A DNA stretch of 64,000 bases. Source: Gammaproteobacteria bacterium (GTDB lineage: Bacteria; Pseudomonadota; Gammaproteobacteria; S012-40). Positions within the stretch are counted from its first letter, which is position 1, and each line of letters begins with the position of its first letter. The stretch spans positions 6,654 through 70,653 of the forward strand of contig WFPC01000025.1 of assembly GCA_015487785.1 (NCBI GenBank), given 5' to 3'. A program made the translations under genes and the position numbers. The notes beneath the pieces were generated by a model, which did no database searches, was not told where the DNA came from, and worked only from the letters and a program-made list of their open reading frames with translations. Of the stretch, positions 33,326-63,894 are shown one piece after another.

Positions 33326-35338
33326 ATGGGCGGTAGCACACTTCAGGTAGGAATCTCCGGACTGGCCGCGTTTCAGCGTTCACTGAGCACCATCGGCCAC
33401 AACATCTCCAATGCCAATACCGAGGGCTACTCGCGTCAGCGGGTGGATCTCACCGCGCGCAATCCCTCACCCAGTTCCGCGGGCTTCATAGGCAACGGGG
33501 TCACGGTGGAGTCGGTGCGGCGTTTCTACGACAGTTTCGCGGTTTCACAGGTGCGCTCGCGCTCGGCGGCGACGGAGTATTTCACCACCTACAAGAGCTT
33601 GGCCTCGCAGGTGGACAACCTGCTGGCCGACCCCGACGCCGGGGTATCCTCGGCGCTCAACAGCTTCTTCGATGCGGTGCAGGGAGTGGCCGACGATCCC
33701 AGCTCGGTATCGGCGCGCGAGGTCATGCTCACCGAAGGGCAGGGCCTGGTGGATCGTTTCCAGACCCTGGACGACTGGTTACAGGACCTGGGCAAGAACG
33801 CCAACGACCGCATCGTCAGCAAGGTGGGTGAGATCAACAGCCTGGCGCGCAACATCGCCAACATGAACAACGACATCATCGTGGCTTCCGGCCTCGGTGC
33901 CGGCCAGCCTCCCAATGATCTGCTGGACAAGCGCGACAAGTTGCTGGACGATCTTTCCAAGCTGATCTCGGTGAAAATCGTTGAGGGCACGGGCAACTCC
34001 ATCAATGTCTATGTGGGCAATGGCCAGAGTCTGGTATTGGACACCAACTACATGCAGCTGGAGGCGGGTATCGACCCGGACGACCCGGAGAACTACCAAG
34101 TGTCCTACCAGATGCCCAATGGCACCAGCTATCCGGTGACCGATACCCTCACCGGTGGCGAGCTGGGTGGCGTGATCGCCTTTCGCAATGAAATTCTCAA
34201 CCCCACTCGCAACAAGCTGGGCCGCCTGGCCATGGGTATTGCCATGACCTTCAACGAACAGCAGAAGCTGGGGGTGGACCTCGACGGCTTGTTGGGTGAC
34301 AACTTCTTTGAAGAACCCCTGCCGGAAGCGGTGCCCGGAGTGAACAACACCGGCGGCGAAACCCTTACAGTGACGGTGGACGACATCACCGCCATTACCA
34401 CCGCCGACTATACCCTGAGCTACAATGGTACCAACTACGTACTCACCAACCAGGACGATGGCAGCACCACCAATCTGACCATCGCCAGCGCAGGGCCGCC
34501 CATCGTTTTCGATCCGGTGGATGGCCTGAGCTTCGAGTTGAGCAATACACCGGCGGTGGGCGACGAATTTTTCATCCGCCCCACTCGGGGAGCCGCGCGC
34601 ACCTTCGAGCTGGCCATGGACAATCCCAATCGCATTGCCGCCGCCGGGCCTCTGCTCACACGTATCGACAACGGCAACCTGGGTGATGCCACCATCAGTG
34701 AGGCCACCGTGGTGGATTTCACCAATGCGGCATTGACCACATCGCCGGGTTCCTTGACGCCGCCGGTGCTCATCGTGTTCGACGATCCGCCGGTACCCAC
34801 TGCGCCAGCGACCCTATCCTACAGCATCTACGACAATAGCACGCCCGGCGCGCCAGTGTTGCTGGAAGCCAACATCTCCTACGATGTCAACGATCCCACC
34901 AACGGGCACGACATCTTTCCCAGCCCCGGTGGCCTGGACTACGGCTATACCGTGCGCATCGACGGGGAACCCCAACCCGGCGACCAGTTCACGGTGGAAT
35001 TCAACAGTAATGGCGTGAGTGACAACCGCAACGCCTTGTTACTGGCCGACCTGCAACAAAAAGGCACCCTGATCGGTGGCAATGCAACCTATTCCGATGT
35101 CTATAACGAGGCCGTGGTCTACGTGGGCAACCGTACACGCCAGGCGGAAATAAACCAACAGGCACAGAACGCCCTGCTGGACGAGGCCACCTCCATGCGA
35201 GAGGCGGTCTCGGGTGTCAACCTGGACGAGGAAGCGGCCAACCTGTTGCGCTATCAGCAGGCCTATGCCGCTGCGGCCCAGGTGATCACCGCCGCCGACC
35301 AGTTGTTTCAAACCCTGTTGAGTGCAGTGAGGAGCTAG
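33326..35338 (+). CDS. flgK: Hook-associated protein FlgK
   Basis: GHNISNANTEGYSRQ, NDLLDKRD, SGVNLDEEAANL. Confidence 0.97.
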   Translation: MGGSTLQVGISGLAAFQRSLSTIGHNISNANTEGYSRQRVDLTARNPSPSSAGFIGNGVTVESVRRFYDSFAVSQVRSRSAATEYFTTYKSLASQVDNLLADPDAGVSSALNSFFDAVQGVADDPSSVSAREVMLTEGQGLVDRFQTLDDWLQDLGKNANDRIVSKVGEINSLARNIANMNNDIIVASGLGAGQPPNDLLDKRDKLLDDLSKLISVKIVEGTGNSINVYVGNGQSLVLDTNYMQLEAGIDPDDPENYQVSYQMPNGTSYPVTDTLTGGELGGVIAFRNEILNPTRNKLGRLAMGIAMTFNEQQKLGVDLDGLLGDNFFEEPLPEAVPGVNNTGGETLTVTVDDITAITTADYTLSYNGTNYVLTNQDDGSTTNLTIASAGPPIVFDPVDGLSFELSNTPAVGDEFFIRPTRGAARTFELAMDNPNRIAAAGPLLTRIDNGNLGDATISEATVVDFTNAALTTSPGSLTPPVLIVFDDPPVPTAPATLSYSIYDNSTPGAPVLLEANISYDVNDPTNGHDIFPSPGGLDYGYTVRIDGEPQPGDQFTVEFNSNGVSDNRNALLLADLQQKGTLIGGNATYSDVYNEAVVYVGNRTRQAEINQQAQNALLDEATSMREAVSGVNLDEEAANLLRYQQAYAAAAQVITAADQLFQTLLSAVRS

Positions 35339-35344
35339 TGAAAA

Positions 35345-36643
35345 ATGCGTATTTCCACCGCGCAAATGGCCGAGTTGTCACTCAATTCCATGAACCGGCA
35401 GCAAGCCAAGTTGAGTCGGACCCAGCTGAAGATTTCCACCGGCCAGGCGCTGTTGTCGCCCTCCGACAATCCCTATGCCTCGTCGCGGGCATTGAGACTG
35501 GAGGAATCCATCGGCAGCTTCGAGCAATACCAGGTCAATGCTGGTTATGCCCGTGATCGCCTGGTGACCGAGGAAGGCGTGCTGGAAGGCGTGGGTAATC
35601 TCCTGCAGCGGGTGCGTGAGCTGACCCTCAATGCCACCAGTGACAGCCAGACCGCGGAAAGTCGCAAATTCATCGCCGCCGAGGTACGTCAACTCTATGA
35701 TCAAATGCTGTCACTGGCCAATAGCACCGACGCCAACAACGAATACCTGTTCGCCGGCTACCAGGGCAAGACCAAGCCCTTCGTGCCCAATGCCGCCACT
35801 GGTCGGGTGGAGTACAAGGGTGACAATGGCCAGCGATTCCTCAAGGTTGGCCCCAGCACCAATGTGGCGGTGAGTGATTCGGGAGAGTCGGTGTTCTACA
35901 ACATCCGCAATGGCAATGGCACCTTCGTCACCGAAGACGATGCCAACAACACCGGCACCGGCATCATCGATCCCGGCTCGGTGTTGGGCAATTACGTGCC
36001 GGAAGACTATACCATCAAGTTCATTCCTCCCACCTCGCCGCCCAACCAACCCGATGACCCGGTGGAATACTACGTGCTGGACCGCAATGGCGACATTGTG
36101 GTGCCCTCAGCCTATGCAGGCAGTACCGAGGCGGTGTTTACCGCCGACGTGGCGGCCAATCTCACCAGTGGGATTCCCTACGAAGAAAATTCCCTGATCC
36201 AGGGGCTCGACAGCAATGGTGCCCAGGTGAGCATTTCCGGCGAACCGGCCGCCGGTGACGTGTTCTACGTGAAGCGCAGCCGTTACCAAGAAGTGTTCCA
36301 GACCATCAAGAACCTCTATACCGTGCTGGAAGAGCCCATCAACGACGACAGTGACCGTGCCCGTTTCCACAATGCCATGAACCGGGTCTTGGTGGATGTG
36401 GACCAGGCCCTGGGCACAGTACTCGATGCGCGTGCCCGGGTGGGTGCCCGGCTCAATATCACCGACAAGCAATTCGAGATCAACGAATCGTTCAACTTGC
36501 AAATGAAGCAGACCCTGTCGTCGGTGAAGGATCTGGATTTCGCCCAGGCAGTCACCGACCTCAATCTGCAACTGGCCGGTTTGCAGGCAGCCCAGAATGC
36601 CTATACCAAGGTTCAGGGATTGTCGCTGTTCAATTATCTATAG
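35345..36643 (+). CDS. flgL: Hook-associated protein FlgL
   Basis: MRIST start, PSDNP, YLFAG, C-terminal LSLFNYL. Confidence 0.96.
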   Translation: MRISTAQMAELSLNSMNRQQAKLSRTQLKISTGQALLSPSDNPYASSRALRLEESIGSFEQYQVNAGYARDRLVTEEGVLEGVGNLLQRVRELTLNATSDSQTAESRKFIAAEVRQLYDQMLSLANSTDANNEYLFAGYQGKTKPFVPNAATGRVEYKGDNGQRFLKVGPSTNVAVSDSGESVFYNIRNGNGTFVTEDDANNTGTGIIDPGSVLGNYVPEDYTIKFIPPTSPPNQPDDPVEYYVLDRNGDIVVPSAYAGSTEAVFTADVAANLTSGIPYEENSLIQGLDSNGAQVSISGEPAAGDVFYVKRSRYQEVFQTIKNLYTVLEEPINDDSDRARFHNAMNRVLVDVDQALGTVLDARARVGARLNITDKQFEINESFNLQMKQTLSSVKDLDFAQAVTDLNLQLAGLQAAQNAYTKVQGLSLFNYL

Positions 36644-40800: not shown

Positions 40801-41408
40801 AGGTCGCGATTCTGGACTACGGCATGGGTAACCTGGGTTCGGTGACCCGGGCCCTGGAGGACTGTGGTGCCGAGGTGGTGTTGTGCACCGAGGGCGCTGC
40901 CCTGGAAGGTATCGGCAAGGTGGTGCTGCCCGGTGTGGGCGCCTTCGCCGATGGCATGGCGGCGCTACGTCAACGCGGGCTGGATCGTGCGCTGGGTGAG
41001 TATGTGGCAGCAGGCCGCGGTGAGTTGCTGGGTATCTGCCTGGGCATGCAACTGCTGGCCGACTGGGGTCTGGAAGGTGAACGCACTGCCGGTCTGGGTC
41101 TGATTGCGGGCGAGGTGATTCGTCTGCAGCCTGGCGCGGGGGAGCGTGTTCCCCATGTGGGCTGGAACTGTGTGCAGCGGTTGAGTGACGACCCGTTATG
41201 GCAGGGTATCGCCGAAGGGACGGATTTCTATTTCGTACACAGTTATCATTTTGCCGTGACACGGCAAAAACAGGCCATCGCTCGTACGCCTTATTGCGGA
41301 GAGGTGATATCCGCGGTGCGTTCCGGCAGGGTCTATGGGGTGCAGTTCCATCCGGAGAAAAGTTCCTTTCCGGGGCGACGCCTGTTGCAGAACTTTCTTT
41401 CTTTGTGA
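40797..41408 (+). CDS. HisH-like glutamine amidotransferase (glycan-associated)
   Basis: LPGVGAF, GICLGMQ, YFVHSY, QFHPEKS; coupled to the amidotransferase. Confidence 0.88.
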   Translation: MKVAILDYGMGNLGSVTRALEDCGAEVVLCTEGAALEGIGKVVLPGVGAFADGMAALRQRGLDRALGEYVAAGRGELLGICLGMQLLADWGLEGERTAGLGLIAGEVIRLQPGAGERVPHVGWNCVQRLSDDPLWQGIAEGTDFYFVHSYHFAVTRQKQAIARTPYCGEVISAVRSGRVYGVQFHPEKSSFPGRRLLQNFLSL

Positions 41409-41414
41409 GTCGTC

Positions 41415-42194
41415 ATGTTGAAGACACGCGTGATTCCCACCCTGTTATGGAAGGATTTCGGCCTGGTCAAGGGCAAGGGTTTCGACAGTTGGCGCCGGGT
41501 GGGTACGGTATTGCCGGCGATCAAGGTCTACAACACCCGTGATGTGGATGAACTGATTCTGCTCGATATCACCGCCACCGCTCAGGAGCGGGAGCCGGAT
41601 TATGAGGCCATTCGCGACTTCACTGCCGAATGCTCGGTGCCTCTCACGCTCGGTGGCGGGGTGAACGATCTGGAGGTGATTCGCAAGCTGCTCTACAGCG
41701 GGGCCGACAAGGTGGCCATCAACAGTGCAGCCTATGCACGTCCGCAGTTGATCACTGAGGCGGCGCAACGTTTTGGGAGCCAGTGCGTGGTGGTGAGCAT
41801 CGATGCCCGCCGCGATGCCCATGGCCGCTACCGTTGTTATCGCTGTTGCGGGCAGGAGGATACCGGGCGTGAATTGGTTGCGTGGGCAATGGAGGTGGAG
41901 AGCCTGGGAGCAGGGGAGATTCTGCTGACTTCCATCGAGCGTGATGGCAGCCTGCAAGGTTACGATGTGGGCATGATCCGGCAGGTCGCCCGGGCGGTGA
42001 ATATCCCAGTGATTGCTGCTGGTGGCGCGGGTGAGGCGTCCCATTTCCATCAGGCCCTGGTGCAGGGTGGGGCGAATGCGGTGGCCGCGGCCAGTGTGTT
42101 CCACTTCACCGAGTTGACCCCGGAAGAAGTCAAGCAATATCTGCGTGAACGGGGTATTGCTGTGCGTAATACTCTGCAGCGTGATGCCGCCTGA
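41415..42194 (+). CDS. HisF-like TIM-barrel protein (glycan-associated)
   Basis: [43 protein letters not shown]. Confidence 0.88.
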
Positions 42195-43668
42195 GATTGT
42201 TGTCCGGGCCGATGCTTCCCGCCACATGGGGTTGGGGCATGTGGCGCGTTGCCTGGCGCTGGCGCGCGCCTTGCGTCGGCGGGGTGCCACCGTAACGTTT
42301 CTGTGTCGTAGCCTGCCCGGTGATGCCGGTGAGCGCATAATCCGCGAAGGGTTTGCTCTGCAGCGGCTAGAGGTACCCATCGGCAACGAGAGCGAGGATG
42401 CCGCGGCCTGTCTGGCTTGGTTACAACAGCGGGTCGGGGTGCGCTGGTTGATCGTCGATCACTATGGGTTGGGCGCAGACTGGGAGAGTCGTCTGCGGCC
42501 CCATGTGGGTCAACTGCTGGCCATCGACGATCTGCCCGAGCGGCGGCATTGCTGTGATCTGCTGTTGGAGCCCAACCTGCCGGCCCGGTCACCCGGTCGT
42601 GACCACCGTGGCGCCAGGGAATGGCTTTCCGGGCCACGTTACGCCCTGTTGGATGCGGCCTTCGCCGCAGTGGGTGAAAAGCGCGGGAGACAGACCGCAC
42701 AGGCGTGCAGGCTGTTGGTGAGCTTCGGCGGAGCGGATCCCTCTGGTGATACGGAGAAGGTCCTGCGTGCTCTGGGCGCCATGGCGCGGAACTGGCGGGT
42801 CGAGGTGGTGATAGGGCCGGCCAATGGCCGTCGTCGGCAAATCGAGGCACTGGCCGCGCGATTACCCGATACGCGTTGTCATTACGACATCACACCGACA
42901 GAAATGGCGGCGGCCATGGCGCGGGCTGAGTTGGCCGTGGGCGCGGGTGGTGGCAGCGCCCTGGAACGCTGTGCCGCGGCCTTACCCGGCGTGGTCATTG
43001 CCCAGGCCGACAACCAGCGTGCGCCGGCGCGTCTATTGGCCGAGCATGGAGCCCAGCTCTACCTGGGAGAGTCGTCCGCGGTGGACGAAGAGCAGATCGC
43101 ACGTGCGTTGCTCGTGCTGGCGGAGAATGCCAGCCTGCGCCACAGCCTTGCCCGTCGCGGACGGGAATTGGTGGACGGCTTGGGTGCCGAGCGTCTGGCC
43201 AGGCACTTGTGTCGGCCGGATATCCTGTTGCGTCCGGCTCGCCAGGGTGATTGCGAGGCCGTTTGGTACTGGCGCAATGCACCGGAGGTGAGGCGTTATT
43301 CCGGCGATGGTGAGGTTATTGCCTGGCCGGTGCATCGTGCCTGGTTCGAGTCGGTGTTGGCCAATCCCTCGCGCCATCTGCTCATCGGTGAAAACGAGGG
43401 CAGACCGGTGGGTGTGTTGCGCTTTGATCTGGCACGGGACGAGGCCGAGGTGTCCATCTATTTGTGTCCGGACAAGCACGGTCAGGGCTATGGTGCGGCC
43501 TTGCTGGCCCAGGGACACCGGTGGTTGCGGGAGCACTGCCCGGGCTTGCGACGAGTGATCGCCGAGGTGCGCAGTGACAATACCGCCTCCCTGGCCCTGT
43601 TCCGTGCCCAGGGTTACCGGCAGTGGAAACAACAATGGGTCTATACGATGGAAGCCGATCTGTCATGA
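42184..43668 (+). CDS. pseG: PseG UDP-sugar hydrolase fused to a PseH-like GNAT N-acetyltransferase
   Basis: RADAS..GLGHVARC, VDHYGL, AIDD, LVSFGGADP, ADNQ; C-terminal GNAT domain (WRNAPEVR, VGVLRFD, GQGYG, NTASLALF). Confidence 0.88.
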   Translation: MPPEIVVRADASRHMGLGHVARCLALARALRRRGATVTFLCRSLPGDAGERIIREGFALQRLEVPIGNESEDAAACLAWLQQRVGVRWLIVDHYGLGADWESRLRPHVGQLLAIDDLPERRHCCDLLLEPNLPARSPGRDHRGAREWLSGPRYALLDAAFAAVGEKRGRQTAQACRLLVSFGGADPSGDTEKVLRALGAMARNWRVEVVIGPANGRRRQIEALAARLPDTRCHYDITPTEMAAAMARAELAVGAGGGSALERCAAALPGVVIAQADNQRAPARLLAEHGAQLYLGESSAVDEEQIARALLVLAENASLRHSLARRGRELVDGLGAERLARHLCRPDILLRPARQGDCEAVWYWRNAPEVRRYSGDGEVIAWPVHRAWFESVLANPSRHLLIGENEGRPVGVLRFDLARDEAEVSIYLCPDKHGQGYGAALLAQGHRWLREHCPGLRRVIAEVRSDNTASLALFRAQGYRQWKQQWVYTMEADLS

Positions 43669-44735: not shown

Positions 44736-45430
44736 TGACGCAACAAAGCAAGACGGCTTTTAAGGACTGGGCAGACTATTATCGCCAGGCTAGCGCCAGT
44801 GGCGAGGCCCTGGCCTATCCCAGCGAAACCCTGGTGCGCCTGTTCAAGGGAAAGTATATCACCGGCATGCCGAGGGACTTTCACGGCCTGTCGGTACTCG
44901 ACGTGGGCTGTGGCGGCGCCAACAATGCCCTGATGATGGCGCGTCTGGGGTTGCGGGTTTTCGGTACCGAGGTAGATGAGAGTCTGTGCCGAGAGGCCCG
45001 GGACATTCTGGCATCGCAGGGTTTCGAGGCCGATTTCCGCGTTGGTACCAACACCCGGTTGCCCTTTGACGACGACCAGTTCGATTTCCTGGTCTCCTGG
45101 AATGTGCTGCACTATGAAAACACCGAGCCGGACATCGTGGCCGGTTTGCAGGAGTATGCCAGGGTTCTCAAGCCGGGTGGCCGTCTATTGCTGTCCACCA
45201 CCGGGCCCGACCATGCCATTCTGAAAAATGCCAGAACCCTGGGCGGGCATCGTTACCAGATCGGTCGCGAGGACGATTTCCGCAAGGGCGAAATCTATTT
45301 CTATTTCGACAGCCCGGCCTATATCCATTTCTATTTCGATCCGGTTTTTCACCAGGTGCAGGTGGGGAGAACCCACGATCGGTTGTTCAACGACACCCTG
45401 GATTGGTTCATCGTTACTGCCGTCAAGTGA
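44732..45430 (+). CDS. Class I SAM-dependent methyltransferase
   Basis: VLDVGCGGA, FDFLVSWNVLHY, RVLKPGG. Confidence 0.9.
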   Translation: MMTQQSKTAFKDWADYYRQASASGEALAYPSETLVRLFKGKYITGMPRDFHGLSVLDVGCGGANNALMMARLGLRVFGTEVDESLCREARDILASQGFEADFRVGTNTRLPFDDDQFDFLVSWNVLHYENTEPDIVAGLQEYARVLKPGGRLLLSTTGPDHAILKNARTLGGHRYQIGREDDFRKGEIYFYFDSPAYIHFYFDPVFHQVQVGRTHDRLFNDTLDWFIVTAVK

Positions 45431-46724
45431 GTTCACGGATCAGGCCCTTGGCCAGGCAGTCGCGCGCGGCCTGGTGAAGCTCGCCGATGTCCAGCCCCGA
45501 GCGCTCGGCGATGTCCAGCAGGTCGTGTTCGCCATCACTGTAGTTGAGCAACCACAACAGGGCCTCGATGCGACGTTCCACATGGGACTGGGTGCCCAGG
45601 GAAGGATAAAGCCCGCGTTTGCCCAGTTGGGGCTCGCCATGGGGTTGCAGGTTGAGATAGCGCCGGTTCATTTCCAGTACCCGACAGATTTCGGTGTAGG
45701 TCTTCACCGATTGCGCCATGGCCTTGAAGGAAACGATGGCCTTGTTGTCCAATGAGGTGTGGTATTCCGGATACTCGGCATAGGGCGTGCGCATCAGTGA
45801 GCCCACCGGAAGATTGAAACCGGGTGAGCAATACTGGCGCTCGTCGCTGCCGGTGGGCCTGAAGTCACGCAGGCGGTGGAAACCCGGGTGCCGCTTCCGC
45901 AACACATATTCGGTGGCTCGGTCGGCCAGACTGTTGCCGGCGCGGGAGCGCTGATAGGTGAAGGGTGCATCGTGGCCGTTGCAGGTGATCACGAAACCGG
46001 CGGCGAGATGCCGCTTGAGATGCTCGCCATGGCGGTGTAGATAACAGATGCTGCCGATAGTCTCCGGGGCGAGCACGAAGCGATAGGTGTAGTAGCGTTC
46101 CTCGAGGGTGGCGAGTTCCCGATAGAGAAAGGCACATACCAATGGACCCGACAACTCGTTGACTGCCAGCGAGGGATGACAGGTATAACTGCTGAGCAGG
46201 ATTTCCTGCCGCGAACGGCCGGGTAGTACAGCATCGGACAGGGTCAGGCTGCCGTCGATGTGATCAGTGTCGACAACCACTTGGTATTCGCCCTCGACTA
46301 ATTGCTCCCGTTGGCGGTGGCTGAGGCAGAAGCCCCAGTAAGGGGAATAATACGAAGTGACATAGGGGATGGCATCGGGCTTGTACGGCAGGCTGTGCAG
46401 GTGGCCCTGTAACTCGGCCAGGCTCAGGTTGCCGCGAAAGGCGACGGAATAGTTCACCAGGTGCAGGTTGTTATCACGGATGTCGAGGATGCGCCTGCCG
46501 CTTGGATCGATTACATAGGCTTCCCGTACCACCCATTCCTTGGGAACCCGCCAGTCCAGCACTTGGCTGCCCGAGGGAATCTCGTGACGCACCAGCGGCA
46601 GGATCTCGCCGAGAATGTCATGGGTCTGGCGCACGCCCTTGCCGGTGATGCTGCGCAGAATGGGCCACAGTCGGTCGAAATAATATTCCAGGCTGGCCGC
46701 CAGCCGGTTCAGGTCTTCAGCCAT
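45423..46724 (-). CDS. DUF4910/DUF2172 protein (M28 peptidase-like fold, C-terminal winged helix)
   Basis: RSITGKGVRQT, IPYVTSYY, YTCHPS, NELSG, GSDERQYCSPG, EYHTS, PQLGKRGLY. Confidence 0.85.
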   Translation of the reverse strand: MAEDLNRLAASLEYYFDRLWPILRSITGKGVRQTHDILGEILPLVRHEIPSGSQVLDWRVPKEWVVREAYVIDPSGRRILDIRDNNLHLVNYSVAFRGNLSLAELQGHLHSLPYKPDAIPYVTSYYSPYWGFCLSHRQREQLVEGEYQVVVDTDHIDGSLTLSDAVLPGRSRQEILLSSYTCHPSLAVNELSGPLVCAFLYRELATLEERYYTYRFVLAPETIGSICYLHRHGEHLKRHLAAGFVITCNGHDAPFTYQRSRAGNSLADRATEYVLRKRHPGFHRLRDFRPTGSDERQYCSPGFNLPVGSLMRTPYAEYPEYHTSLDNKAIVSFKAMAQSVKTYTEICRVLEMNRRYLNLQPHGEPQLGKRGLYPSLGTQSHVERRIEALLWLLNYSDGEHDLLDIAERSGLDIGELHQAARDCLAKGLIRELT

Positions 46725-48268
46725 GCTTCACACGCTTCGGTATTGTCGAATATTTTGTGGGCAATGACTTTCCGTTCAGGCAGGCAACGGGGAATAAGGT
46801 GCTTGGCGGAGAAGGGCCCGGGGTGGATCAACAGGACGAGCCCTTTCCGGGTGTGCCAGCCTTGTTGCAGGCGCTGGAACCAAGCCAGGGCCTGCAACAG
46901 TTGCCTGCTGTCCAGGGTCACCGAGATTACCCGTATTCCGCGATCTACGTCACCCATGCTCAGCACGCCCACCGGCAGGGCGCCAAAGCGTTGCCGGGTC
47001 TGGATGTTCACCCGGTAGCGCGGGGCCCGCAGGCGTCCGACGAGCGAGGCCGGCAGCGACAGGCCCCAGCGGTTTTGTTCCAGCAGGGTGGCGGGGATGA
47101 AACTCTGGGGCCGCTCCGGATCATAGACCAGGTGCTGGAGCAGTTCTTCCCGCGTGACTTCACCCTCGAAGCTGCGCCCGTGGCTGGGCACCAGGTGGGG
47201 CGAGCTGCGTTGGTCGATGATGAGCCGGCCGGCATCGTCTTGCAGACTGGCTGATTCCAGCCACCAGTATTCGGGCACCAGCAGCTCGCCTATCGCGGTG
47301 CCGGTGGGCAGACGCTGGATGTGAAGACTCTCGAACAAGCTTTTCAGGCTGCGCAGGGCGGCCTCCACGCCGGGCACCAAGCCCAGCAGGGGCCAGTTGT
47401 CCAGGCCACGCTGTAGCTCATCGATGCTGTCTGTGGCTACGGGCCGAATGCCATGCGGCTCGGTGTAGGGAGAGATTTGGGGTGCCTGTCGCTTTTTCCC
47501 GGCCAGAGTCAGCAGCCAGGGTTGCCGTGGCAGGGTATGGGCCAGCAGATCGAAGGTGTCGCGTGCGCGCAGGGCCACCACGGCGCCACGTCCCACGGGT
47601 ACGCTTCGGGCGATGCCTTGCTCGCGGGCCAGACGGTCGAAAGGCTCGAACTCCGCCAGGGTGAGTTCATTGCCCAGGTCCATCACATGAATTACATTGC
47701 GCCATTGGCGGGGTCTGCCCTGCTCGATCAGTGTGCCGCGAAAGGCCTTGTCATAGCGGTAGGGCACCTTCAGTCGGCGCTCGACATAGTGAATGAAGGT
47801 GGATCCGGCATCGAAATTCAGATTGCAGATAATGCCATCAGCGTTCAGGAAACGCTCGAAGAAACAGTTGTCACCAAAACTGTTTTGCGGGACGTCTCGG
47901 GTGAGTTCTCTGGCACGCCGGCCAATGGCGGCAACGGAGTAACTGGGGTCTAGCGAGCGCAGGGAGCAGGGGTCGCGACGCAGCATCTCGGTGAATATAC
48001 CGCAGGTCGAGGGGGTGTTCTGGGGGTCGTAGGTCTCGCCGCGGGGAAAGGAATAGGTGAAGGTGGGTAGTACCAGGGTACCTTCTTCGCCCAGCACATC
48101 GAAAAAGGCGCCGAGCAGGGTTTGATAAACGGTTTGTGCCTGCATGCCGCCTTCTGGCACGCCGAAGAAACCGATATTGCTGTGACAGAACACGGTGTCG
48201 CCGGCGCGCAGGCCCACCCGCTCCAGGGCCGCGGCCAGTTGTGCACGGGTATAGTCGGTCTGGGCCAT
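46709..48268 (-). CDS. AAC(3)-family acyltransferase fused to a degenerate DUF4910-like domain
   Basis: VFCHSNI, GTLVLPTFTY, TPSTCGIFTE, DPSYSVAAIG, FIHYVE, VPYRYDK; the C-half aligns by eye to the neighbouring DUF4910 protein. Confidence 0.8.
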   Translation of the reverse strand: MAQTDYTRAQLAAALERVGLRAGDTVFCHSNIGFFGVPEGGMQAQTVYQTLLGAFFDVLGEEGTLVLPTFTYSFPRGETYDPQNTPSTCGIFTEMLRRDPCSLRSLDPSYSVAAIGRRARELTRDVPQNSFGDNCFFERFLNADGIICNLNFDAGSTFIHYVERRLKVPYRYDKAFRGTLIEQGRPRQWRNVIHVMDLGNELTLAEFEPFDRLAREQGIARSVPVGRGAVVALRARDTFDLLAHTLPRQPWLLTLAGKKRQAPQISPYTEPHGIRPVATDSIDELQRGLDNWPLLGLVPGVEAALRSLKSLFESLHIQRLPTGTAIGELLVPEYWWLESASLQDDAGRLIIDQRSSPHLVPSHGRSFEGEVTREELLQHLVYDPERPQSFIPATLLEQNRWGLSLPASLVGRLRAPRYRVNIQTRQRFGALPVGVLSMGDVDRGIRVISVTLDSRQLLQALAWFQRLQQGWHTRKGLVLLIHPGPFSAKHLIPRCLPERKVIAHKIFDNTEACEAWLKT

Positions 48269-48270
48269 GG

Positions 48271-48531
48271 TTATGGGTGTGTTGCCCGGGTCTCGGCGAT
48301 GATCTGGCACAGGCCGCTGAGCGTGGTGAAACGGCGGTCCTGGAATTGCTCGGCAGTGAAACGAATGCCGAACCGGGCCTCGGTATCGGCAATCAGCTCG
48401 ATGATGTTGAAACTGTCGATCAGGCCGGCCTGGATGTAGTCGGCATCGAGCAGGGCAGCGATGTCTGTTGCCCTACGCCCCGATTTTTTGACGAACCAGT
48501 CTTGTAACCAGCTGAGGATGGCGTCGTTCAT
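48271..48531 (-). CDS. Acyl carrier protein
   Basis: 86 aa; GLIDSF phosphopantetheinylation motif, FGI, FTTLSGL. Confidence 0.88.
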   Translation of the reverse strand: MNDAILSWLQDWFVKKSGRRATDIAALLDADYIQAGLIDSFNIIELIADTEARFGIRFTAEQFQDRRFTTLSGLCQIIAETRATHP

Positions 48532-49199
48532 GAGATTGCCTCGTCTTCCAGGGCAAAGACCCGTGCGGGAGCGCCGTCACCGTCGAGGATCTTGAGCGGG
48601 GCCACCACCAGTTGCACCTGTTTTTGCCGCAGCGCGGCGAGGTTGCAGAGATATTCCACCAGCACCACGCCGTTGCCGAGAAGAATCTTGTGTATGGGCG
48701 AGTCAATGTCACAGCCCTTGCCGTTTTTCGGGTCGTCGGGCATGGGTGTGTCCATGGCCAGCAGGCGGCAACCCCGCTGCACCAGCCAGTTGGCAGCCTG
48801 TTCCGACAGGAAGGGATGGTCGGTGTAATAGCGCATGGTATCCAGTTGTCTGGACCAGTCGTAGCGCAGGATGATGCGTTCGGGGCGTTCCTCGCCCAGC
48901 TCGTCTTCTAGCTCGTCGATGCCTATCATCTGGAAATCCCTTGCCTGGGTGAAGTCGCAGACCCGGGCCGGGCCCACCAGTTGCTCCGGTGCAATGGCAT
49001 CGATGGAAGCCCCTTCGGGAATGAAGTGTCGTGGCGCGTCCACGTGGGTGCCGGTATGGGTGCCCAGCACCAGCTTGCGGGTTTCCCGGTCTTCTATGCC
49101 GAAACGACCCAGCTGGGTGATTTCCACGAAAGGATGCCAGGGTACGGGAAAGGTGGTCATGCCCTCCCGGATGGTCAGGGTGAGATCCACGATGCGCAT
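48528..49199 (-). CDS. Cyclase-family (kynurenine formamidase-like) metal hydrolase
   Basis: HTGTHVDAPRH (HxGTHxDxPxH), VEYLCNL, APLKI, GAPARV; GGAGA RBS. Confidence 0.88.
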   Translation of the reverse strand: MRIVDLTLTIREGMTTFPVPWHPFVEITQLGRFGIEDRETRKLVLGTHTGTHVDAPRHFIPEGASIDAIAPEQLVGPARVCDFTQARDFQMIGIDELEDELGEERPERIILRYDWSRQLDTMRYYTDHPFLSEQAANWLVQRGCRLLAMDTPMPDDPKNGKGCDIDSPIHKILLGNGVVLVEYLCNLAALRQKQVQLVVAPLKILDGDGAPARVFALEDEAIS

Positions 49200-49259
49200 G
49201 TTGTGTTCTCCATCGTTCAATCGTAAAAAATAGCCGGGCCGGTTGTCTATCTCGCATCA

Positions 49260-49275
49260 TGCAGTTTGAATGCCC
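49260..49275 (-). promoter_or_regulatory. Internal sigma54 promoter candidate for cyclase-ACP-AAC(3)-DUF4910
   Basis: Minus strand GGGCATTCAAACTGCA (GG-N10-GC) in the 88-bp spacer. Confidence 0.55.
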
Positions 49276-49287
49276 GGGCGGAAAATT

Positions 49288-50076
49288 TCATTTTTCCGGT
49301 TGCAGAAGCTCGCAAATGGCGCCACCGGGTGTGCGCAACAGACCAATGCGTAGGTGTTTGTGGTTCACCTCCAGCGCGAAGGGAGCACTCAGCCAGCGGG
49401 CACCATTCGAGTCGGCCCGCTGCAGGTCGGCCTCGAGGTCGTTGCTGAACATGGCAAGGCAAGTGAAGCCCGCGCTGTCCAATGGATATTCGGGCCATGT
49501 GTTCCCGTGGAGCAGCAGTAGCTGGCAACACCATTGGGTCAGTGGGGAAATCAGTTCCAGCCATGCCCAGTTTTTTTCCTGCTGGCGTACTCGCCAGCCC
49601 AGGCCATGGCGCCAGAAGACGCATTCCTGCTGGACATCGCCGGTGTAGAGCATGACCAGGGTGGGTGCGTGTTCGTCTGTCTGCCAGAGCGGGACGGGGC
49701 TGTCTTGCCAGAATACCGGTCGGGCGTGCCCGTGACCGATGACCTTCAGGGCTTGTGCCACAGCCTGTTCGTGTTTTGCCACCTGGCGAGGCGTGGCCAT
49801 GCCCGCCGTGCTAGGTAACAGGGGCTGATAGGGCGCCTGGCAGGTGGTGTCCGGCGGACCGTGCGCTGTGAGTTCCAGGGCCAGGCCCGCGCCGGGTGGC
49901 GCCAGCCAGGCGATGTCGTGGTGTTCGCGATAGCACGACAACAGAATGCGTTTCTGGTTGTGGTTGGGCAGATCGGTTTCGCGAAAGCACAACCGCCAGC
50001 CCTGTTTTTCCATGTTTTCACTGGTGGGGCTCAGCGAGGCCACGCTGAGAGCCAGGTGGTCAGTGCCGAGAATCAT
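49288..50076 (-). CDS. VOC/glyoxalase-like protein
   Basis: N-terminal DHLALSVASL and C-terminal RTPGGAICELL resemble VOC beta-alpha-beta-beta-beta ends; otherwise divergent. Confidence 0.5.
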   Translation of the reverse strand: MILGTDHLALSVASLSPTSENMEKQGWRLCFRETDLPNHNQKRILLSCYREHHDIAWLAPPGAGLALELTAHGPPDTTCQAPYQPLLPSTAGMATPRQVAKHEQAVAQALKVIGHGHARPVFWQDSPVPLWQTDEHAPTLVMLYTGDVQQECVFWRHGLGWRVRQQEKNWAWLELISPLTQWCCQLLLLHGNTWPEYPLDSAGFTCLAMFSNDLEADLQRADSNGARWLSAPFALEVNHKHLRIGLLRTPGGAICELLQPEK

Positions 50077-51581
50077 GGCGTGGCGGCCCCGGCAGTGCCC
50101 AGGCAGTCCTGGCGCAACAGGTGTTTCTGAATTTTTCCGGTGACGCTGCGGGGAAAATCCCGGCGCTGGATGAAACGGGTGGGACGGGCGTGAGGTGGCA
50201 GTTCACGCCGACAGTGTGCCAGCAGCTCGGCATAAAGGCTTTGCCAGTCATGATCCGCCCTGGCGATGACCAGGGCTACTACTTCTTCACCGTGGAAGTC
50301 GTGGGGTAGGCCGATCACGGCAGCGTCTTCCACGCCCTCGAGTTGCAACAGGCAAGCTTCTACCGCGGCAGGGCTCACGTTGTGACCACCGTGAATGATC
50401 AGATCCTTCTTGCGCCCGGTGATGCTGAGGCAGCCTGTTTCATCCAGTTTGGCCAGGTCGCCGGTATCCATCCAACCGTCGGTCAGGGGTGATATTAGCT
50501 CACCCCGGTCGGGATCCAGGTAGCCGGCCAGGGCGTGGGGTGTATTGACCCACAGGACCTTTTGTTGTCCGCGTAACTGTATTTTTATCCCTGGCAACGG
50601 CGAACCGACCGAGCCTGCGTCACAATGATGTCCGGGACGTTGACCGGCCACCAGCAGGATTTCGCTCATGCCATAGCTCTGGTAGGTCTTGAGACCAAAT
50701 TCTTCCTCGAAGCGCATCCGCACTGCGGCAGGCAGGGGCGCGGTGCCCACGCAGACATCCAGGGGGTTGGCGCGGGTCCAGCGGACCACCCCGGGATCCC
50801 GCTGCAGGCGTGACAGCAGGGCCAGCATGGTGGGGCTGAGCCAGACAGCATTGGCTTGTTGGCTCATCACCGGTTGCCAGAAGGACAACGCGCTGCGCGC
50901 ATCGAAGCGAGGTGCCAGTACCACGCAGCCGCCGGCCATGAAGGGGACCAATATGGTGTTGAGGAATCCAGCCATGTAGCTCATGGGCAGAACGTGTAGC
51001 AGGCGCAGATCTTCATTCCAGCCCATGTGGTGGGCGAAGGTTGCGGCATTGTCCAGCATGCGCCAGGCGAGATGGCATACGGCCTTGGGTCGACTGGTGG
51101 TGCCGGAGGTGAAGAAAATACCGATGATGTGTTCATCACCGGCTTGCCAGGGAGCCGGTGGCAGATGCGCGGCCTTTTGTATCAAGCCTTTTTCTCCCAG
51201 TTGCCATAGCTCCATAGCCCTGATGTCGAGGTTGTCATTTTGTTCGCGGGTGACGATCCGTTTGGCCTGGCTCAACTGCAGTAGGAAGGCCACCTCATGG
51301 GCCGGCAGCTCCGGGTTGAGGGGGATTACGGTGATGCCCCCATGCAGACATCCCAGATAGAGCAGCACGAGGTCGAGACTGTTGGGTAACATGACGGCCA
51401 GACGATCACCAGGCCCCAGGCCCTGCTGGGAGAGCAGGCTGGCCACGCGTGCCGCCTGTTCGCCTAGTTCGGCATAGCTGAAGGTCCGCGGCTCTCCCGG
51501 TGAGGAAAGTGTATCGATCAGGGCGGGCCGGAGGTTGTTGGTTTGGAAACGTCCGTGGAATTGCTCAAGACGGGTGTTCAT
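50073..51581 (-). CDS. Class I adenylate-forming enzyme (acyl-CoA/acyl-ACP ligase)
   Basis: FTSGTTSRPK, SYGMSE, TGDL, GRKKDLII, NVSPAAVE, SVTGKIQK. Confidence 0.92.
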   Translation of the reverse strand: MNTRLEQFHGRFQTNNLRPALIDTLSSPGEPRTFSYAELGEQAARVASLLSQQGLGPGDRLAVMLPNSLDLVLLYLGCLHGGITVIPLNPELPAHEVAFLLQLSQAKRIVTREQNDNLDIRAMELWQLGEKGLIQKAAHLPPAPWQAGDEHIIGIFFTSGTTSRPKAVCHLAWRMLDNAATFAHHMGWNEDLRLLHVLPMSYMAGFLNTILVPFMAGGCVVLAPRFDARSALSFWQPVMSQQANAVWLSPTMLALLSRLQRDPGVVRWTRANPLDVCVGTAPLPAAVRMRFEEEFGLKTYQSYGMSEILLVAGQRPGHHCDAGSVGSPLPGIKIQLRGQQKVLWVNTPHALAGYLDPDRGELISPLTDGWMDTGDLAKLDETGCLSITGRKKDLIIHGGHNVSPAAVEACLLQLEGVEDAAVIGLPHDFHGEEVVALVIARADHDWQSLYAELLAHCRRELPPHARPTRFIQRRDFPRSVTGKIQKHLLRQDCLGTAGAATP

Positions 51582-52674
51582 GGGTCTTCTGTTTCAGCAG
51601 GCTGAAGCGGTATTGTTCGTCGCCGTGATACTGATCGAGGCCGAAGCGGGTGGTGGTTAGGTCTTGCATGCGCTTTGTCTCGGCCAGCCTGCGTGCTTCC
51701 TCTTCCACCATTTCGGGGGCGGCCTCGACCTTGTCGCGTCGGGTGACCGCCATGATGAGTTCGCGTGGATCGACCTGGTAACGACTGGAATATTCGCGAA
51801 TGATACCCATGTAGCTGCTGTGAAACTGGGCATGGCCGGAAATGGTGTCGATGGAACTGTGTCCACCCCTTGTGATGAGGGGGCGGATATATTCCTCACC
51901 GGCATCCATCAGGCCTAGAAGCTCATAGCTCAGTTGTGGGTACAGGCGATTCATAATGCATGCCAGGCGCTCGGTTGCGGTATTGCCGCCACTACGGCCA
52001 AAGCCTTGAAGGGATGCATCGACTACCATGGCGCCCAGCTCCATGGCCTTTAGAGAGTTGGCCATGGCCAAGCCCAGGTTGTCGTGGCCATGGAAGCCGA
52101 TGGGTATGTCCGAGCATTCACGGATAGCGCTCACATAGCGCTCGATATCCGCAGGAGTCATGCCACCCGCCGAATCCACGATGTAGATCAGGTCGGCCCC
52201 AAAATCGACAGATTTCTTCACCTGCTTGGCGAAAGCCCGCGGTGGAGAGGCATAGGATTTCATGTAGTTGGCACATACCATCATGCCGTGCTGCTTGGCT
52301 TTTTCGATGAAGGGGCGGGAGTCGTCCACGTTGTCCACGTTGGTGCCTATGCGAATGAAATCCATGCCGTAGCCGGCTGCCAGTTCCACGTGATGGAGCT
52401 TGGCAATGCCAGGAATACAGAACATTCCCCAGCCGGCCCGATCCAGTTCGTCACTAATGGCGCGCATGTAGTCCTCGTCACTGGCGGCAGCCTGGCCGAA
52501 ACCCGCCTCCGTGGCACCGAGACCCACGCCGTGGCCGATTTCTATCAGGCTGATGCGGGCATTTTCCAACGCCCTGGCAATGGTACGGGTGTCGTTGGCG
52601 GTGAACTGGAAATTGATGGCATAGCTACCATCACGCAGGGTGCAGTCGAGAATGTGTGGTGCCGGTTCCCCCAT
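51565..52674 (-). CDS. DRE-TIM aldolase, 4-hydroxy-2-oxovalerate aldolase (DmpG)-like
   Basis: DCTLRDG, EIGHGVGLG, YIVDSAG, GFHGHDNLGLAMANS, GRSGGN; DmpG-like C-terminal tail. Confidence 0.82.
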   Translation of the reverse strand: MGEPAPHILDCTLRDGSYAINFQFTANDTRTIARALENARISLIEIGHGVGLGATEAGFGQAAASDEDYMRAISDELDRAGWGMFCIPGIAKLHHVELAAGYGMDFIRIGTNVDNVDDSRPFIEKAKQHGMMVCANYMKSYASPPRAFAKQVKKSVDFGADLIYIVDSAGGMTPADIERYVSAIRECSDIPIGFHGHDNLGLAMANSLKAMELGAMVVDASLQGFGRSGGNTATERLACIMNRLYPQLSYELLGLMDAGEEYIRPLITRGGHSSIDTISGHAQFHSSYMGIIREYSSRYQVDPRELIMAVTRRDKVEAAPEMVEEEARRLAETKRMQDLTTTRFGLDQYHGDEQYRFSLLKQKTHEHPS

Positions 52675-52725
52675 GGCAGGTACAAGGATCAATGCGTATG
52701 TTGTGGGTGCTGGCGGCTGTGCTGT

Positions 52726-54357: not shown

Positions 54358-54396
54358 GGCATACTCCAGGGTGATGACGGATGATGTGGGCAATTA

Positions 54397-60718: not shown

Positions 60719-62167
60719 ATGCCTCAAATAATCAACACCAATATCATGTCCCTGAATTCGCAGCGGAACCTCAACCGCTCCCAGGGAGCCATGCAGACCG
60801 CCTTGTCCCGCCTGTCTTCCGGCCTGCGGATCAACAGCGCCAAGGACGATGCCGCGGGCCTGGCGATTTCCGAGCGCTTCACCTCGCAGATAAAGGGGCT
60901 CACGGTGGCGGCACGAAATGCCAACGACGGTATTTCCCTGTCCCAGGTGGCCGAGGGCGCCCTGGGTGAAATCGGCAATATCTTGCAGCGTATTCGCGAG
61001 CTGGCGGTGCAATCCATCAATGCCACCAACTCCGCCACCGATCGCCAGGCCCTGAACGCCGAGGTGGGGCAGTTGACCGCGGAACTGGATCGGATTGCCA
61101 AGACCACCGAGTTCAACGGCCAGAAGATTCTCGATGGTTCCTTCACCACGGCCTTGTTCCAGGTGGGGGCCAATGCCAACCAGATGATCGTGGCCACCAC
61201 GGCCAATTTCCAGGCCAATCAATACGGTGACTATCGTGTCGAGGGTTATGGCACCTCGGTGGCCACGGCCTCGCGTTATCTTGCCGCCAACAGTTTCAGC
61301 GTGGTGGGCTCGGAAGGGGCGGCGACAATCAGCTTCGCCGCTGGTGCCAGCGCCAAGGATATTGCCGCCGCAACCAACCTGGAGGCCGACAATACCGGCG
61401 TGAAGGCCTTTGCCATCACCGAGACCGATGTGACCTTCGGGGCCGCTGGTGCCTACCAATTCACCCTGGAAGGGGAGAATGCGGGTTCCCCGGTCACGGT
61501 GGGTTTTTCCATTACCGCGGCCACGGGTTCGGAAGCCTTGTCGGCGGCGGTGACGGCGTTCAACGACCAGACTGCGCGTACCGGTATCGTGGCTACGGTG
61601 AAACCGGACGGTTCGGGGATTCGCCTGACCAACTATGAAGGCGAGGACATCGTGCTGAACGACACCACTTTTACCAACAGCGGTAACGTGACGGTGACCG
61701 GCGCGGGCGCGGGCTCGGTGACTCTGACGGCGGATTCCATATCGGATCCGTCGGTGAGTGTGGGGCAGGTGATCTTCGATTCCAACAAGTCCTTCACCAT
61801 GACCGGCACCGCCGCAGAGGTCTTGACCAACGCTTCGGAGGCTTCGGTATTGAAAGATGTCGCCTCACTGAGCATCGATACGGTGGACAATGCCAACGTG
61901 GCCCTGGTGATCGTGGACGCGGCCATCGCCCGGGTGAGCGATCAACGGGCCAGGTTCGGTGCCCTGCAGAGCCGCTTCGAGGCGACCATCCGGAACCTGG
62001 AGACCAGTGTGGAGAATCTCAGCGCCGCTCGTTCACGGATACGGGATGCGGATTTCGCGGCCGAGACCTCGGAGCTGACCCGTACCCAGATCCTGCAGCA
62101 GGCCGGTACCGCCATGCTGGCCCAGGCCAACCAGATTCCACAGAACGTACTCAGTCTGTTGCAGTAG
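60719..62167 (+). CDS. fliC: Flagellin 1
   Basis: [57 protein letters not shown]. Confidence 0.97.
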
Positions 62168-62180
62168 ATGTTTCCCCTCC

Positions 62181-62206
62181 GGCGGCCCGTCCCGGGCCGC
62201 CCGTTT
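62181..62206 (+). terminator. Possible terminator after flagellin 1
   Basis: 9-bp stem GGCGGCCCG/CGGGCCGCC with a short U-run. Confidence 0.45.
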
Positions 62207-62280
62207 CCCCTCGGTTTCCTGGGGTTTCGGCGCGAGCCCAAGGGTTTCGCGAGCCTGTCCGCAGCCGGACAAAATTTGCT

Positions 62281-62307
62281 TAAAGTTTCCCCTCAAGCGG
62301 GCGATAC
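62281..62307 (+). promoter_or_regulatory. Sigma28 promoter for flagellin 2
   Basis: TAAAGTTT extended -35; TAAA-N15-GGCGATAC. Confidence 0.82.
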
Positions 62308-62403
62308 AGGACGTGGGAGCGGTGAATAGGCACGTGATGTCTATATCCGCTATGTCAATTCTGCGCCGGATCTCCCATGTCCGGCCCATGGGGAGAAGCA
62401 ATT

Positions 62404-63894
62404 ATGCCTCAGATTATCAACACGAATTTAATGTCATTGAATTCACAACGGAACCTGAACCGTTCCCAGAGCACCCTGAGTACGTCGCTGCAGCGTCTGT
62501 CATCCGGTCTGCGGATCAACAGCGCCAAGGACGACGCCGCGGGGCTGGCCATCTCCGAGCGGTTCACGTCTCAGATCCGGGGCCTGACCATGGCCTCGCG
62601 CAACGCCAACGATGGTATTTCCATGGCCCAGGTGGCCGAGGGTGCCCTGGCCGAGGTGGGCAATATCCTGCAACGGATTCGCGAGCTGGCGGTGCAGTCG
62701 GCCAATGCCACCAACTCGGCCTCGGACCGTCAGGCCCTGCAGGCTGAAGTGTCCCAGCTCACTGCGGAACTGAACCGTATCGCCAAGACCACCGAGTTCA
62801 ACGGCACCAAGCTGCTCGATGGCAGCAATGCCACCTCTCTGTTCCAGGTGGGCGCCAATGCCAACGAGACCATCGTGGCCACCACCAACAACTTCAAGAC
62901 CAGCCAGTTTGGCGACTACCGGGTGACCGGTCGCGCCACCGAAGCCTTTGCGGGCACCAACGGACGCTATGATGCCACCACCGCGGCCTATGATTTCCGC
63001 ATCGTGGGCTCCGAGGGCTCGGCGTCCATCAACATCAGTGCCGGTGACAGCGCCAAGGACGTGGCCGCGGCGGTCAACCTGGTCAAGGACAGCACGGGTG
63101 TGACCGCCACCGCGACGACCGAGGTCACCCTGACTTTCGCCGCCGCGGGCTCCTATCAGCTGACCCTGGGCTCCGATCAGGGTACAAGTACCGCTGATGC
63201 CGTCACCCTGGGTTTCTCGATCAGCGCCAACACCGGTGTCGAGGCCTTGTCCGCGGCGGTGAATGCCTTCAATGACCAGACCGCCACCACTGGCGTGGTG
63301 GCCACGGTGAAGGACGATGGCTCCGGCATCACCCTGACCAACTATGAGGGTGAGGAGATCGTGGTGCGTGACACCACCTTCCAGAACAGTGGCAACGTCA
63401 CCGTGACCGGTGGCGCGGGTTCTGCCCAGACCCTCACCGCCAATACAGCGGCCGACACGGTCACGGTGACCGGCAAGGTGGTGTTCGACTCCACCAAGAG
63501 TTTCACCATCGACAGTACCACGGGCACGGCGACCCTGGTGTTGACCGCCACCAGCGGCGGTTCCGAGGCTTCGTCACTGCAGGCGGTGAAGGATCTGGAC
63601 ATCAGCTCGGTGGCCGGCGCCAACGATGCCCTGGTGATCGTGGATGCGGCCATTGCCCAGGTGAGCAACCAGCGGGCCAAGTTCGGGGCCCTGCAGAGCC
63701 GCTTCGAGGCCACGGTGCGTAACCTGGAGACCAGCGTGGAAAACCTCAGCGGAGCGCGGTCACGGATCAGGGACGCCGATTTCGCGGTGGAGACCTCGGA
63801 GCTGACACGTTCGCAGATCCTGCAACAGGCCGGTACGGCGATGTTGGCCCAGGCCAACTCCATACCGCAGAACGTCCTCAGTCTCTTGGGGTAG
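62404..63894 (+). CDS. fliC: Flagellin 2
   Basis: Same conserved flagellin termini; MPQIINTN start after a GGGAG RBS. Confidence 0.97.

Follow-up and report, generated by a model that had tools for sequence, protein, structure and literature searches.

A probable acyl-ACP-dependent N-acyltransferase of a pseudaminic-acid cassette appears to retain the remnant of a once-complete fused DUF4910 module

Why should an acyltransferase carry, as its C-terminal half, a degraded likeness of the protein encoded by the very next gene? The question is raised by a 64,000-nucleotide stretch of gammaproteobacterial DNA, referred to here as the window (contig WFPC01000025.1, positions 6,654 to 70,653, of assembly GCA_015487785.1). 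On its minus strand, a gene for a protein related to the aminoglycoside N-acetyltransferases of the AAC(3) family runs into a gene for a complete DUF4910 protein (Table 1), and the C-terminal half of the first protein (the C-half) resembles the second. At roughly seven chances in ten, we consider the 519-aa product of the first gene to be an N-acyltransferase of the AAC(3) fold that depends on acyl-ACP (ACP, acyl carrier protein), belongs to a pseudaminic-acid tailoring cassette, and has retained an atrophied DUF4910 remnant. The sequence comparisons described below indicate that the C-half is best read as what is left of a once-complete, fused DUF4910 module, rather than as a copy of the neighbour.

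The resemblance between the two proteins, noted by eye in the original prediction, is borne out at the level of profile, sequence and structure. The C-half (about aa 282-519) scores 43 bits against Pfam DUF2172 (PF09940; gathering cut-off 27, E 6e-11) over model positions 2-91 of 92. BLASTP aligns 142 of its residues with the neighbour at 27% identity (E 5e-10) over the stretch aligned by eye; the aligned segments, 46976..47395 in the AAC(3)-like gene and 46245..46667 in the neighbour, lie roughly where the likeness had been placed (46240-47310). The C-half of an AlphaFold2 model matches the crystal structure of CA_C2195 (PDB 3K9T) in Foldseek at E 4.3e-17 over 224 columns of 422, and the two helices that open the C-half align with the N-terminal helices both of full-length fusion proteins and of the neighbour. 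The profile match that had been anticipated was found for DUF2172 and not for DUF4910 itself: PF16254 gives no Pfam match at E <=0.1 in the AAC(3)-like protein, nor does HTH_47 give any, the protein stopping about 190 residues short of that point.

What remains of the module has lost every motif. In an alignment with full-length relatives, the loops bearing CHPS and NELSG are deleted, and the core is absent from its fourth strand onward, which removes SDERQ, EYHTS and the winged helix. These four motifs had been listed as missing in the original prediction; ETIGS, which has become GPFSA, must be added to them. Five aromatic residues are conserved in the DUF2172 domain of CA_C2195 (Trp70, Tyr98, Tyr127, Tyr131 and Tyr132; PMC4000134) and are near-invariant in 59 standalone and 44 full-fusion modules. 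The C-half keeps one of the five (W64), with H, P, L and E in place of Y92, Y121, Y125 and Y126. Because the metal-site motifs have been lost along with the probable lid and substrate residues, the C-half is predicted to be a catalytically dead DUF4910-type module, unable to bind metal, and its earlier description as a pseudo-enzyme was apt. Set against CA_C2195 and its relative Cj1295, the remnant has the fold of the first half of CA_C2195, but lacks the zinc ligands, the trimerising winged helix and four of the five conserved aromatics.

The origin of this module had been ascribed to duplication of the neighbouring gene. Similarity ranking, phylogeny and a topology test all reject that origin. 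A whole-protein search covering 5.8 billion proteins found 58 relatives of the AAC(3)-DUF4910 type, most of them 695-725 aa long with a complete DUF4910, an HTH_47 and all motifs; every relative of 641 aa or less has lost most or all of the motifs. The closest matches to the C-half are other short forms (73, 46, 37 and 34% identity), followed by the modules of full fusions (31-38% over the helices and DUF2172 part, 66-89 bits), and among 130 modules compared the protein's own neighbour lies near the bottom (26.8%, 45.8 bits). The well-conserved AAC half is a separate line of evidence and points the same way: it is 56-61% identical to that of the full fusions and scores 300-327 bits with them, while standalone AAC homologues reach a median of 216 bits.

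A careful maximum-likelihood tree was built from the first 165 module positions of 51 sequences. In it the standalone modules form a clade with support of 98/98, which includes the window neighbour and the neighbours of the related genes in loci L082, L083, L085 and L087, and the degenerate modules form a group (95/94) that attaches to the full-fusion part of the tree. A larger, 126-row tree made by a quick method agrees. A tree constrained to unite the window-type C-halves with their neighbours in a single clade is worse by 73.9 log-likelihood units, and the approximately unbiased (AU) test rejects it at p 0.0011. The full fusions, of about 700 aa and known from many metagenomes, share the order of parts with the window protein; an example is the Desulfonauticus submarinus 'DUF4910 domain-containing protein' P0016, and the JGI name for such proteins is 'aminopeptidase-like protein/aminoglycoside N3'-acetyltransferase'. 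At least one of them (L001) sits in the same type of cassette beside nonulosonic-acid genes. Compared with these fusions, the window protein is shorter by about 190 residues, which comprise the core's second half plus the winged helix. It also lacks every motif residue, and its gene is followed by one for an intact DUF4910.

Alignment of the relatives gives a graded series, from complete proteins of about 700 aa, through forms of 613-618 aa in which every core segment is kept and the motifs and winged helix are gone, to forms of 505-521 aa in which half of the core is lost. The extreme form is rare: a library of 1.84 billion representatives contains no more than about nine matches to the atrophied tail, compared with 375 to the whole C-half. 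Among the representatives of 590-650 aa, many have their match near residues 290-450 of the query, and for this reason AAC(3) fusions with a winged-helix-less DUF4910 module seem to be a common intermediate class rather than a rarity. Fusion and fission are both recurrent: in the quick tree a fusion (L009) falls within the standalone clade, and standalone modules from Patescibacteria fall within the fusion clade. Two loci, L027 (9962-12134) and L075 (8948-11119), have DUF4910 modules that hardly differ (branch lengths 0 and 0.03). In one, a single 723-aa frame encodes the fusion; in the other, the AAC part (319 aa) and the DUF4910 part (424 aa) occupy separate frames that overlap by 60 nt. Either a frameshift split the gene very recently or the assembly is at fault. 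The window gene is not a truncated pseudogene of a full fusion, since the overlapping next gene leaves no space for the missing part and the protein stops at the same place in several distant lineages.

Wherever the surroundings could be judged, all but one of the atrophied forms coexist with an intact DUF4910. The two lie next to or close to each other in the window, in a Magnetococcales metagenome-assembled genome (MAG; L002), and in L082, L083/84, L085, L087, L088 and L089. In a Desulfovibrio MAG (genome G003, locus L003), a motif-less 613-aa form belongs to the cassette, and other contigs carry two DUF4910 matches within frames of 708-710 aa; that genome has three AAC(3)-DUF4910-type genes in total. 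By comparison, the full fusion is the only DUF4910 in five of eight full-fusion genomes. We left P0022 out of this tally, as its contig is riddled with broken genes and it keeps an NDxLSG motif and may be a frameshifted full fusion; P0052 is uninformative for coexistence, its contig stopping before the position at which its relative L089 has a DUF4910. The coexistence of atrophied forms with an intact DUF4910, and the frequent standing of full fusions as sole DUF4910, would fit a history in which the fused module decayed once a second DUF4910 was available.

In the window, the second DUF4910 is the neighbour, which is the sole DUF4910 match in a search of the 2.44-Mb source genome. It scores 305, 125 and 94 bits against Pfam DUF4910, DUF2172 and HTH_47, has all the motifs, and matches CA_C2195 at E 4e-113; it is a clear orthologue of CA_C2195 and Cj1295. 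Its start overlaps the 3' end of the AAC(3)-like gene by 16 nt, and the two genes are probably translationally coupled.

Does the stump still serve a purpose? Measured against an 81%-identical relative in L082 (dS about 0.55), dN/dS is 0.11 in the AAC domain and 0.07 in the standalone DUF4910, and rises to 0.22 in the helices and DUF2172 remnant, 0.51 in the core stump and 0.49 in the linker. Constraint on the C-half is relaxed but present, as purifying selection. The reading frame has stayed open and the fold elements have been kept in at least six lineages, although the C-halves are only 34-46% identical and synonymous sites are saturated. The AlphaFold2 model of the 519-aa protein, made from an alignment of 148 sequences, is compact and confident, with a predicted local distance difference test score (pLDDT) of 96.9 and a predicted template modelling score (pTM) of 0.92. 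Taken together, these observations make it likely that the C-half has a retained, non-catalytic structural role, and they favour such a role over a neutral relic.

A neutral relic would be a stump without any role, left by a fused module that became redundant after the arrival of the standalone DUF4910 and has not yet been deleted. The loss of every functional signature speaks for this, as do the wide variation in the length of the atrophied forms (479-641 aa) and a dN/dS two to five times that of the transferase domain. We nevertheless consider it improbable, given the conservation of frame and fold across lineages that diverged to synonymous saturation, the predicted compactness of the model, and a dN/dS for the insert that lies well below 1.

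Several points weigh against our own reading, and the first of them also speaks for the neutral alternative. In most cassettes the AAC homologue is a standalone protein of 260 aa that works with no appendage, so the AAC fold as such does not require the stump. The alignment behind the AlphaFold2 model contains many intact DUF4910 sequences, and these may inflate its high confidence in the stump. Long branches lead to the degenerate modules, and both their grouping and their attachment may partly reflect long-branch attraction, which weakens the AU test equally; moreover, although the group constrained in that test was set by the hypothesis of the original prediction, the test followed sight of the first tree. 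At one locus (L086), no DUF4910 lies within 8 kb of the atrophied form. Finally, the donor of the acyl group, its acceptor and the reaction of DUF4910 are all putative.

With these reservations, we propose the following history for the retained remnant. The ancestor would have been an AAC(3)-DUF4910 fusion of about 700 aa, of the kind common in other bacteria. A second, standalone DUF4910 of the ordinary clade is present in the lineage, now as the next gene and presumably translationally coupled. Losses from the fused module would then have comprised the metal site, the aromatic cluster in the lid domain, one half of the core and the winged helix that makes the trimer. The resulting stump may be a non-catalytic, folded appendage packed on the transferase domain, under weaker but real purifying selection, on which the transferase domain most likely came to depend, whether to stay stable or soluble or to bring a partner such as the ACP into position. 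In the pathway as we picture it, an acid would be made and loaded onto the ACP; the standalone DUF4910 would carry out the hydrolase step, removing an N-acetyl group from a nonulosonic acid or its precursor and freeing the amine, as published hypotheses suggest; and the AAC(3)-fold domain would then move the ACP-borne acyl group to the freed amine.

It is possible, if doubtful, that the stump is a dedicated adaptor, recruiting the transferase to the trimer of the standalone DUF4910 or presenting holo-ACP to it. If this were true, a non-covalent deacylase-acyltransferase channel would have replaced the covalent fusion, and a pseudoenzyme scaffold would have been born from a fused catalytic domain. 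The original prediction had offered a more specific version, in which a C-half duplicated from the neighbour mimics the homo-oligomer interface of DUF4910 and docks the transferase on the hydrolase for acyl exchange; the docking would be on the hydrolase trimer and would channel the exchange. The adjacency, overlap and probable coupling of the two genes are congenial to such docking, as is the purifying selection on the remnant; the fusion or adjacency of the two families in most loci makes physical cooperation plausible. In the CA_C2195 trimer, the winged helix contacts the insert loop 62-64 of the next protomer and the core loops 293-294 and 302-305 (PMC4000134), and the remnant does keep the DUF2172 domain to which loop 62-64 belongs. 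It has, however, neither the winged helix nor the 293-305 region, and these account for the greater part of the trimer interface; the residues corresponding to loop 62-64 also vary from one atrophied form to another (IGE-L, LADGT, LGD-G, VGN-R, LDG-R). On these structural comparisons, mimicry of the homo-oligomer interface in the form proposed is unlikely, though the stump might touch DUF4910 or the ACP in some other way. The weak match to the neighbour, its separate clade and the AU test tell against the proposed duplication, and the atrophied form in L086 stands without a nearby DUF4910 on which to dock. We give the docking model as a whole little credence.

Among 80 genome loci with an AAC homologue, the full fusion occurs in 7, a DUF4910 lies directly downstream in 27 and within 10 kb in 31; in 11 there is no DUF4910 in the stretch covered, most of these being on short contigs. 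Such counts support a functional link between the AAC(3)-like and DUF4910 families. The Rosetta-stone argument made for this locus was correct in that respect, although not new.

In its transferase part, the 533-aa frame matches Antibiotic_NAT (PF02522) at 116.9 bits (cut-off 25) over aa 43-259, and the N-terminal half of the model matches the structures of AAC(3)-IIIa, AAC(3)-IVa and FrbF in Foldseek (E ~1e-19, TM 0.8). The catalytic histidine of the family is kept as H160 in the motif STFIHYVE, where it aligns with the histidines of AAC(3)-IVa and FrbF in matches to the PDB sequences, and H160 and E163 are invariant across 36 homologues. The ATG at 48268 is the likely start codon; it lies 2 nt past the ACP stop codon and gives a protein of 519 aa, the length of the database representative P0001. 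The protein thus has the Antibiotic_NAT fold and catalytic histidine in common with the AAC(3) aminoglycoside N-acetyltransferases and FrbF, but unlike theirs its gene belongs to a sugar-tailoring operon and follows an ACP gene; for this reason, its donor is probably an acyl-ACP and its acceptor an amino sugar rather than an antibiotic. An aminoglycoside-resistance gene is ruled out by this gene context and by the NCBIfam resistance equivalogs, against which the protein reaches at best 79 bits (cut-off 270). Our literature search turned up no biochemically characterised AAC(3)-fold acyl-ACP sugar N-acyltransferase.

Table 1. Minus-strand features of the tailoring operon, with positions in the window and residues numbered on the 519-aa protein.
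Feature	Position	Strand	Extent	Basis or remarks
AAC(3)-like gene (open reading frame)	46709..48310	minus	533-aa frame	
AAC(3)/Antibiotic_NAT-fold N-acyltransferase domain	47483..48268	minus	aa 1-262	Pfam PF02522
Linker, poorly conserved	47426..47482	minus	aa 263-281	no regular secondary structure in AlphaFold2 model
Two N-terminal helices of DUF4910-like module	47336..47425	minus	aa 282-311	AlphaFold2 helices 282-291, 299-311
Degenerate DUF2172-type insert domain	46949..47335	minus	aa 312-440	Pfam PF09940
Atrophied M28-like core stump	46712..46948	minus	aa 441-519	strand-helix-strand-helix-strand-helix (AlphaFold2, alignment with full fusions)
Standalone DUF4910 + DUF2172 + HTH_47 gene	45423..46724	minus	433 aa	
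Acyl carrier protein	48271..48531	minus		directly upstream of transferase; Pfam PP-binding
Upstream operon genes	48528..52692	minus		cyclase/arylformamidase-like hydrolase, VOC-fold protein, AMP-forming ligase, 4-hydroxy-2-oxovalerate-aldolase-like protein; Pfam, NCBIfam

The wider locus is a flagellin-glycosylation island between flgK/flgL (33326..36643) and two flagellin genes (60719..63894), in which Pfam and NCBIfam identify PseB, PseC, a CMP-transferase, an amidotransferase set of WbuX, HisH-like and HisF-like genes, a PseG-PseH fusion and PseI. The fusion, on the plus strand at 42145-43668, is a single frame joining a PseG-like hydrolase of the glycosyltransferase-28 type to a PseH-like GNAT domain, and the same 494-aa fusion occurs in L083. 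The amidotransferase set (39652-42194, plus strand) begins with a WbuX-type N-acetyl sugar amidotransferase (348 bits), followed by the HisH-like and HisF-like genes, and these suggest that the island also makes an acetamidino group.

On the minus strand the operon runs in the order aldolase-like protein, AMP-forming ligase, VOC-fold protein, cyclase-like hydrolase, ACP, transferase and DUF4910. The four genes upstream of the ACP have this order in L082-L089 too, as they do in many genome loci. The ACP, whose position is conserved in related cassettes, is the likely acyl donor for the transferase, judging from this context, and the genes upstream of it may form the acyl precursor branch. It is tempting to guess that the acyl product of the cassette is a short hydroxy-acid such as 3-hydroxybutyrate, derived from 4-hydroxy-2-oxovalerate, as this would fit the aldolase-like, VOC and ligase genes. 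A 555-aa protein (52726-54393, minus strand) heads the tailoring operon; it has a weak Capsule_synth (KpsS-like) match of 19 bits and no NCBIfam match, and a homologue lies at the same place in L082 and L083.

The seven-gene cassette recurs beside NeuB or Pse genes in many phyla (loci L001-L089). It is found in Vibrio coralliilyticus, Enterovibrio, Grimontia (Grimontia hollisae), Pseudoalteromonas, Legionellaceae, Lachnospiraceae and many MAGs, and the usual arrangement elsewhere is a 260-aa AAC with a separate DUF4910. CA_C2195 and Cj1295 share this gene context with the window neighbour, being found with an aminosugar N-acyltransferase, an ACP and Pse genes (PMC4000134, PMC3068675).

Much of this biology has been anticipated, and we describe no new kind of system. 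The neighbourhood of AAC(3) and DUF4910 genes and their fusions were already reported (PMC4000134), and deacetylation followed by re-acylation was already proposed (PMC3068675), where the working hypothesis, drawn up alongside the genetics of Cj1295, is that Cj1295 strips Pse5Ac7Ac of its N5-acetyl group and so makes way for another acyl group. The link among AAC(3), ACP and DUF4910, the fusions, and the acyl-exchange idea of deacylating and then re-acylating were published in 2010 and 2014. What is new here is an atrophied fused module beside an intact partner, a variant of the published association. Domain atrophy was defined by Prakash and Bateman in 2015 (PMC4432964); the present case differs in that atrophy would have followed redundancy with an intact paralogue next door, and in that intermediate stages (613-641 aa) survive in other genomes.

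In summary, the AAC(3)-like, ACP and DUF4910 genes appear to constitute a widespread tailoring module for the pseudaminic and legionaminic acids of flagellins and surface polysaccharides. The practical value of the finding lies in annotation and in the design of experiments; in particular, "AAC(3)" matches in such islands should not be annotated as aminoglycoside-resistance genes. The series from full fusion to motif-less fusion to half-domain stump, each with an intact DUF4910 elsewhere, provides independent comparative evidence that DUF4910 activity is needed alongside the transferase. The same series also shows cleanly, in nature, how a domain atrophies once it has become redundant.

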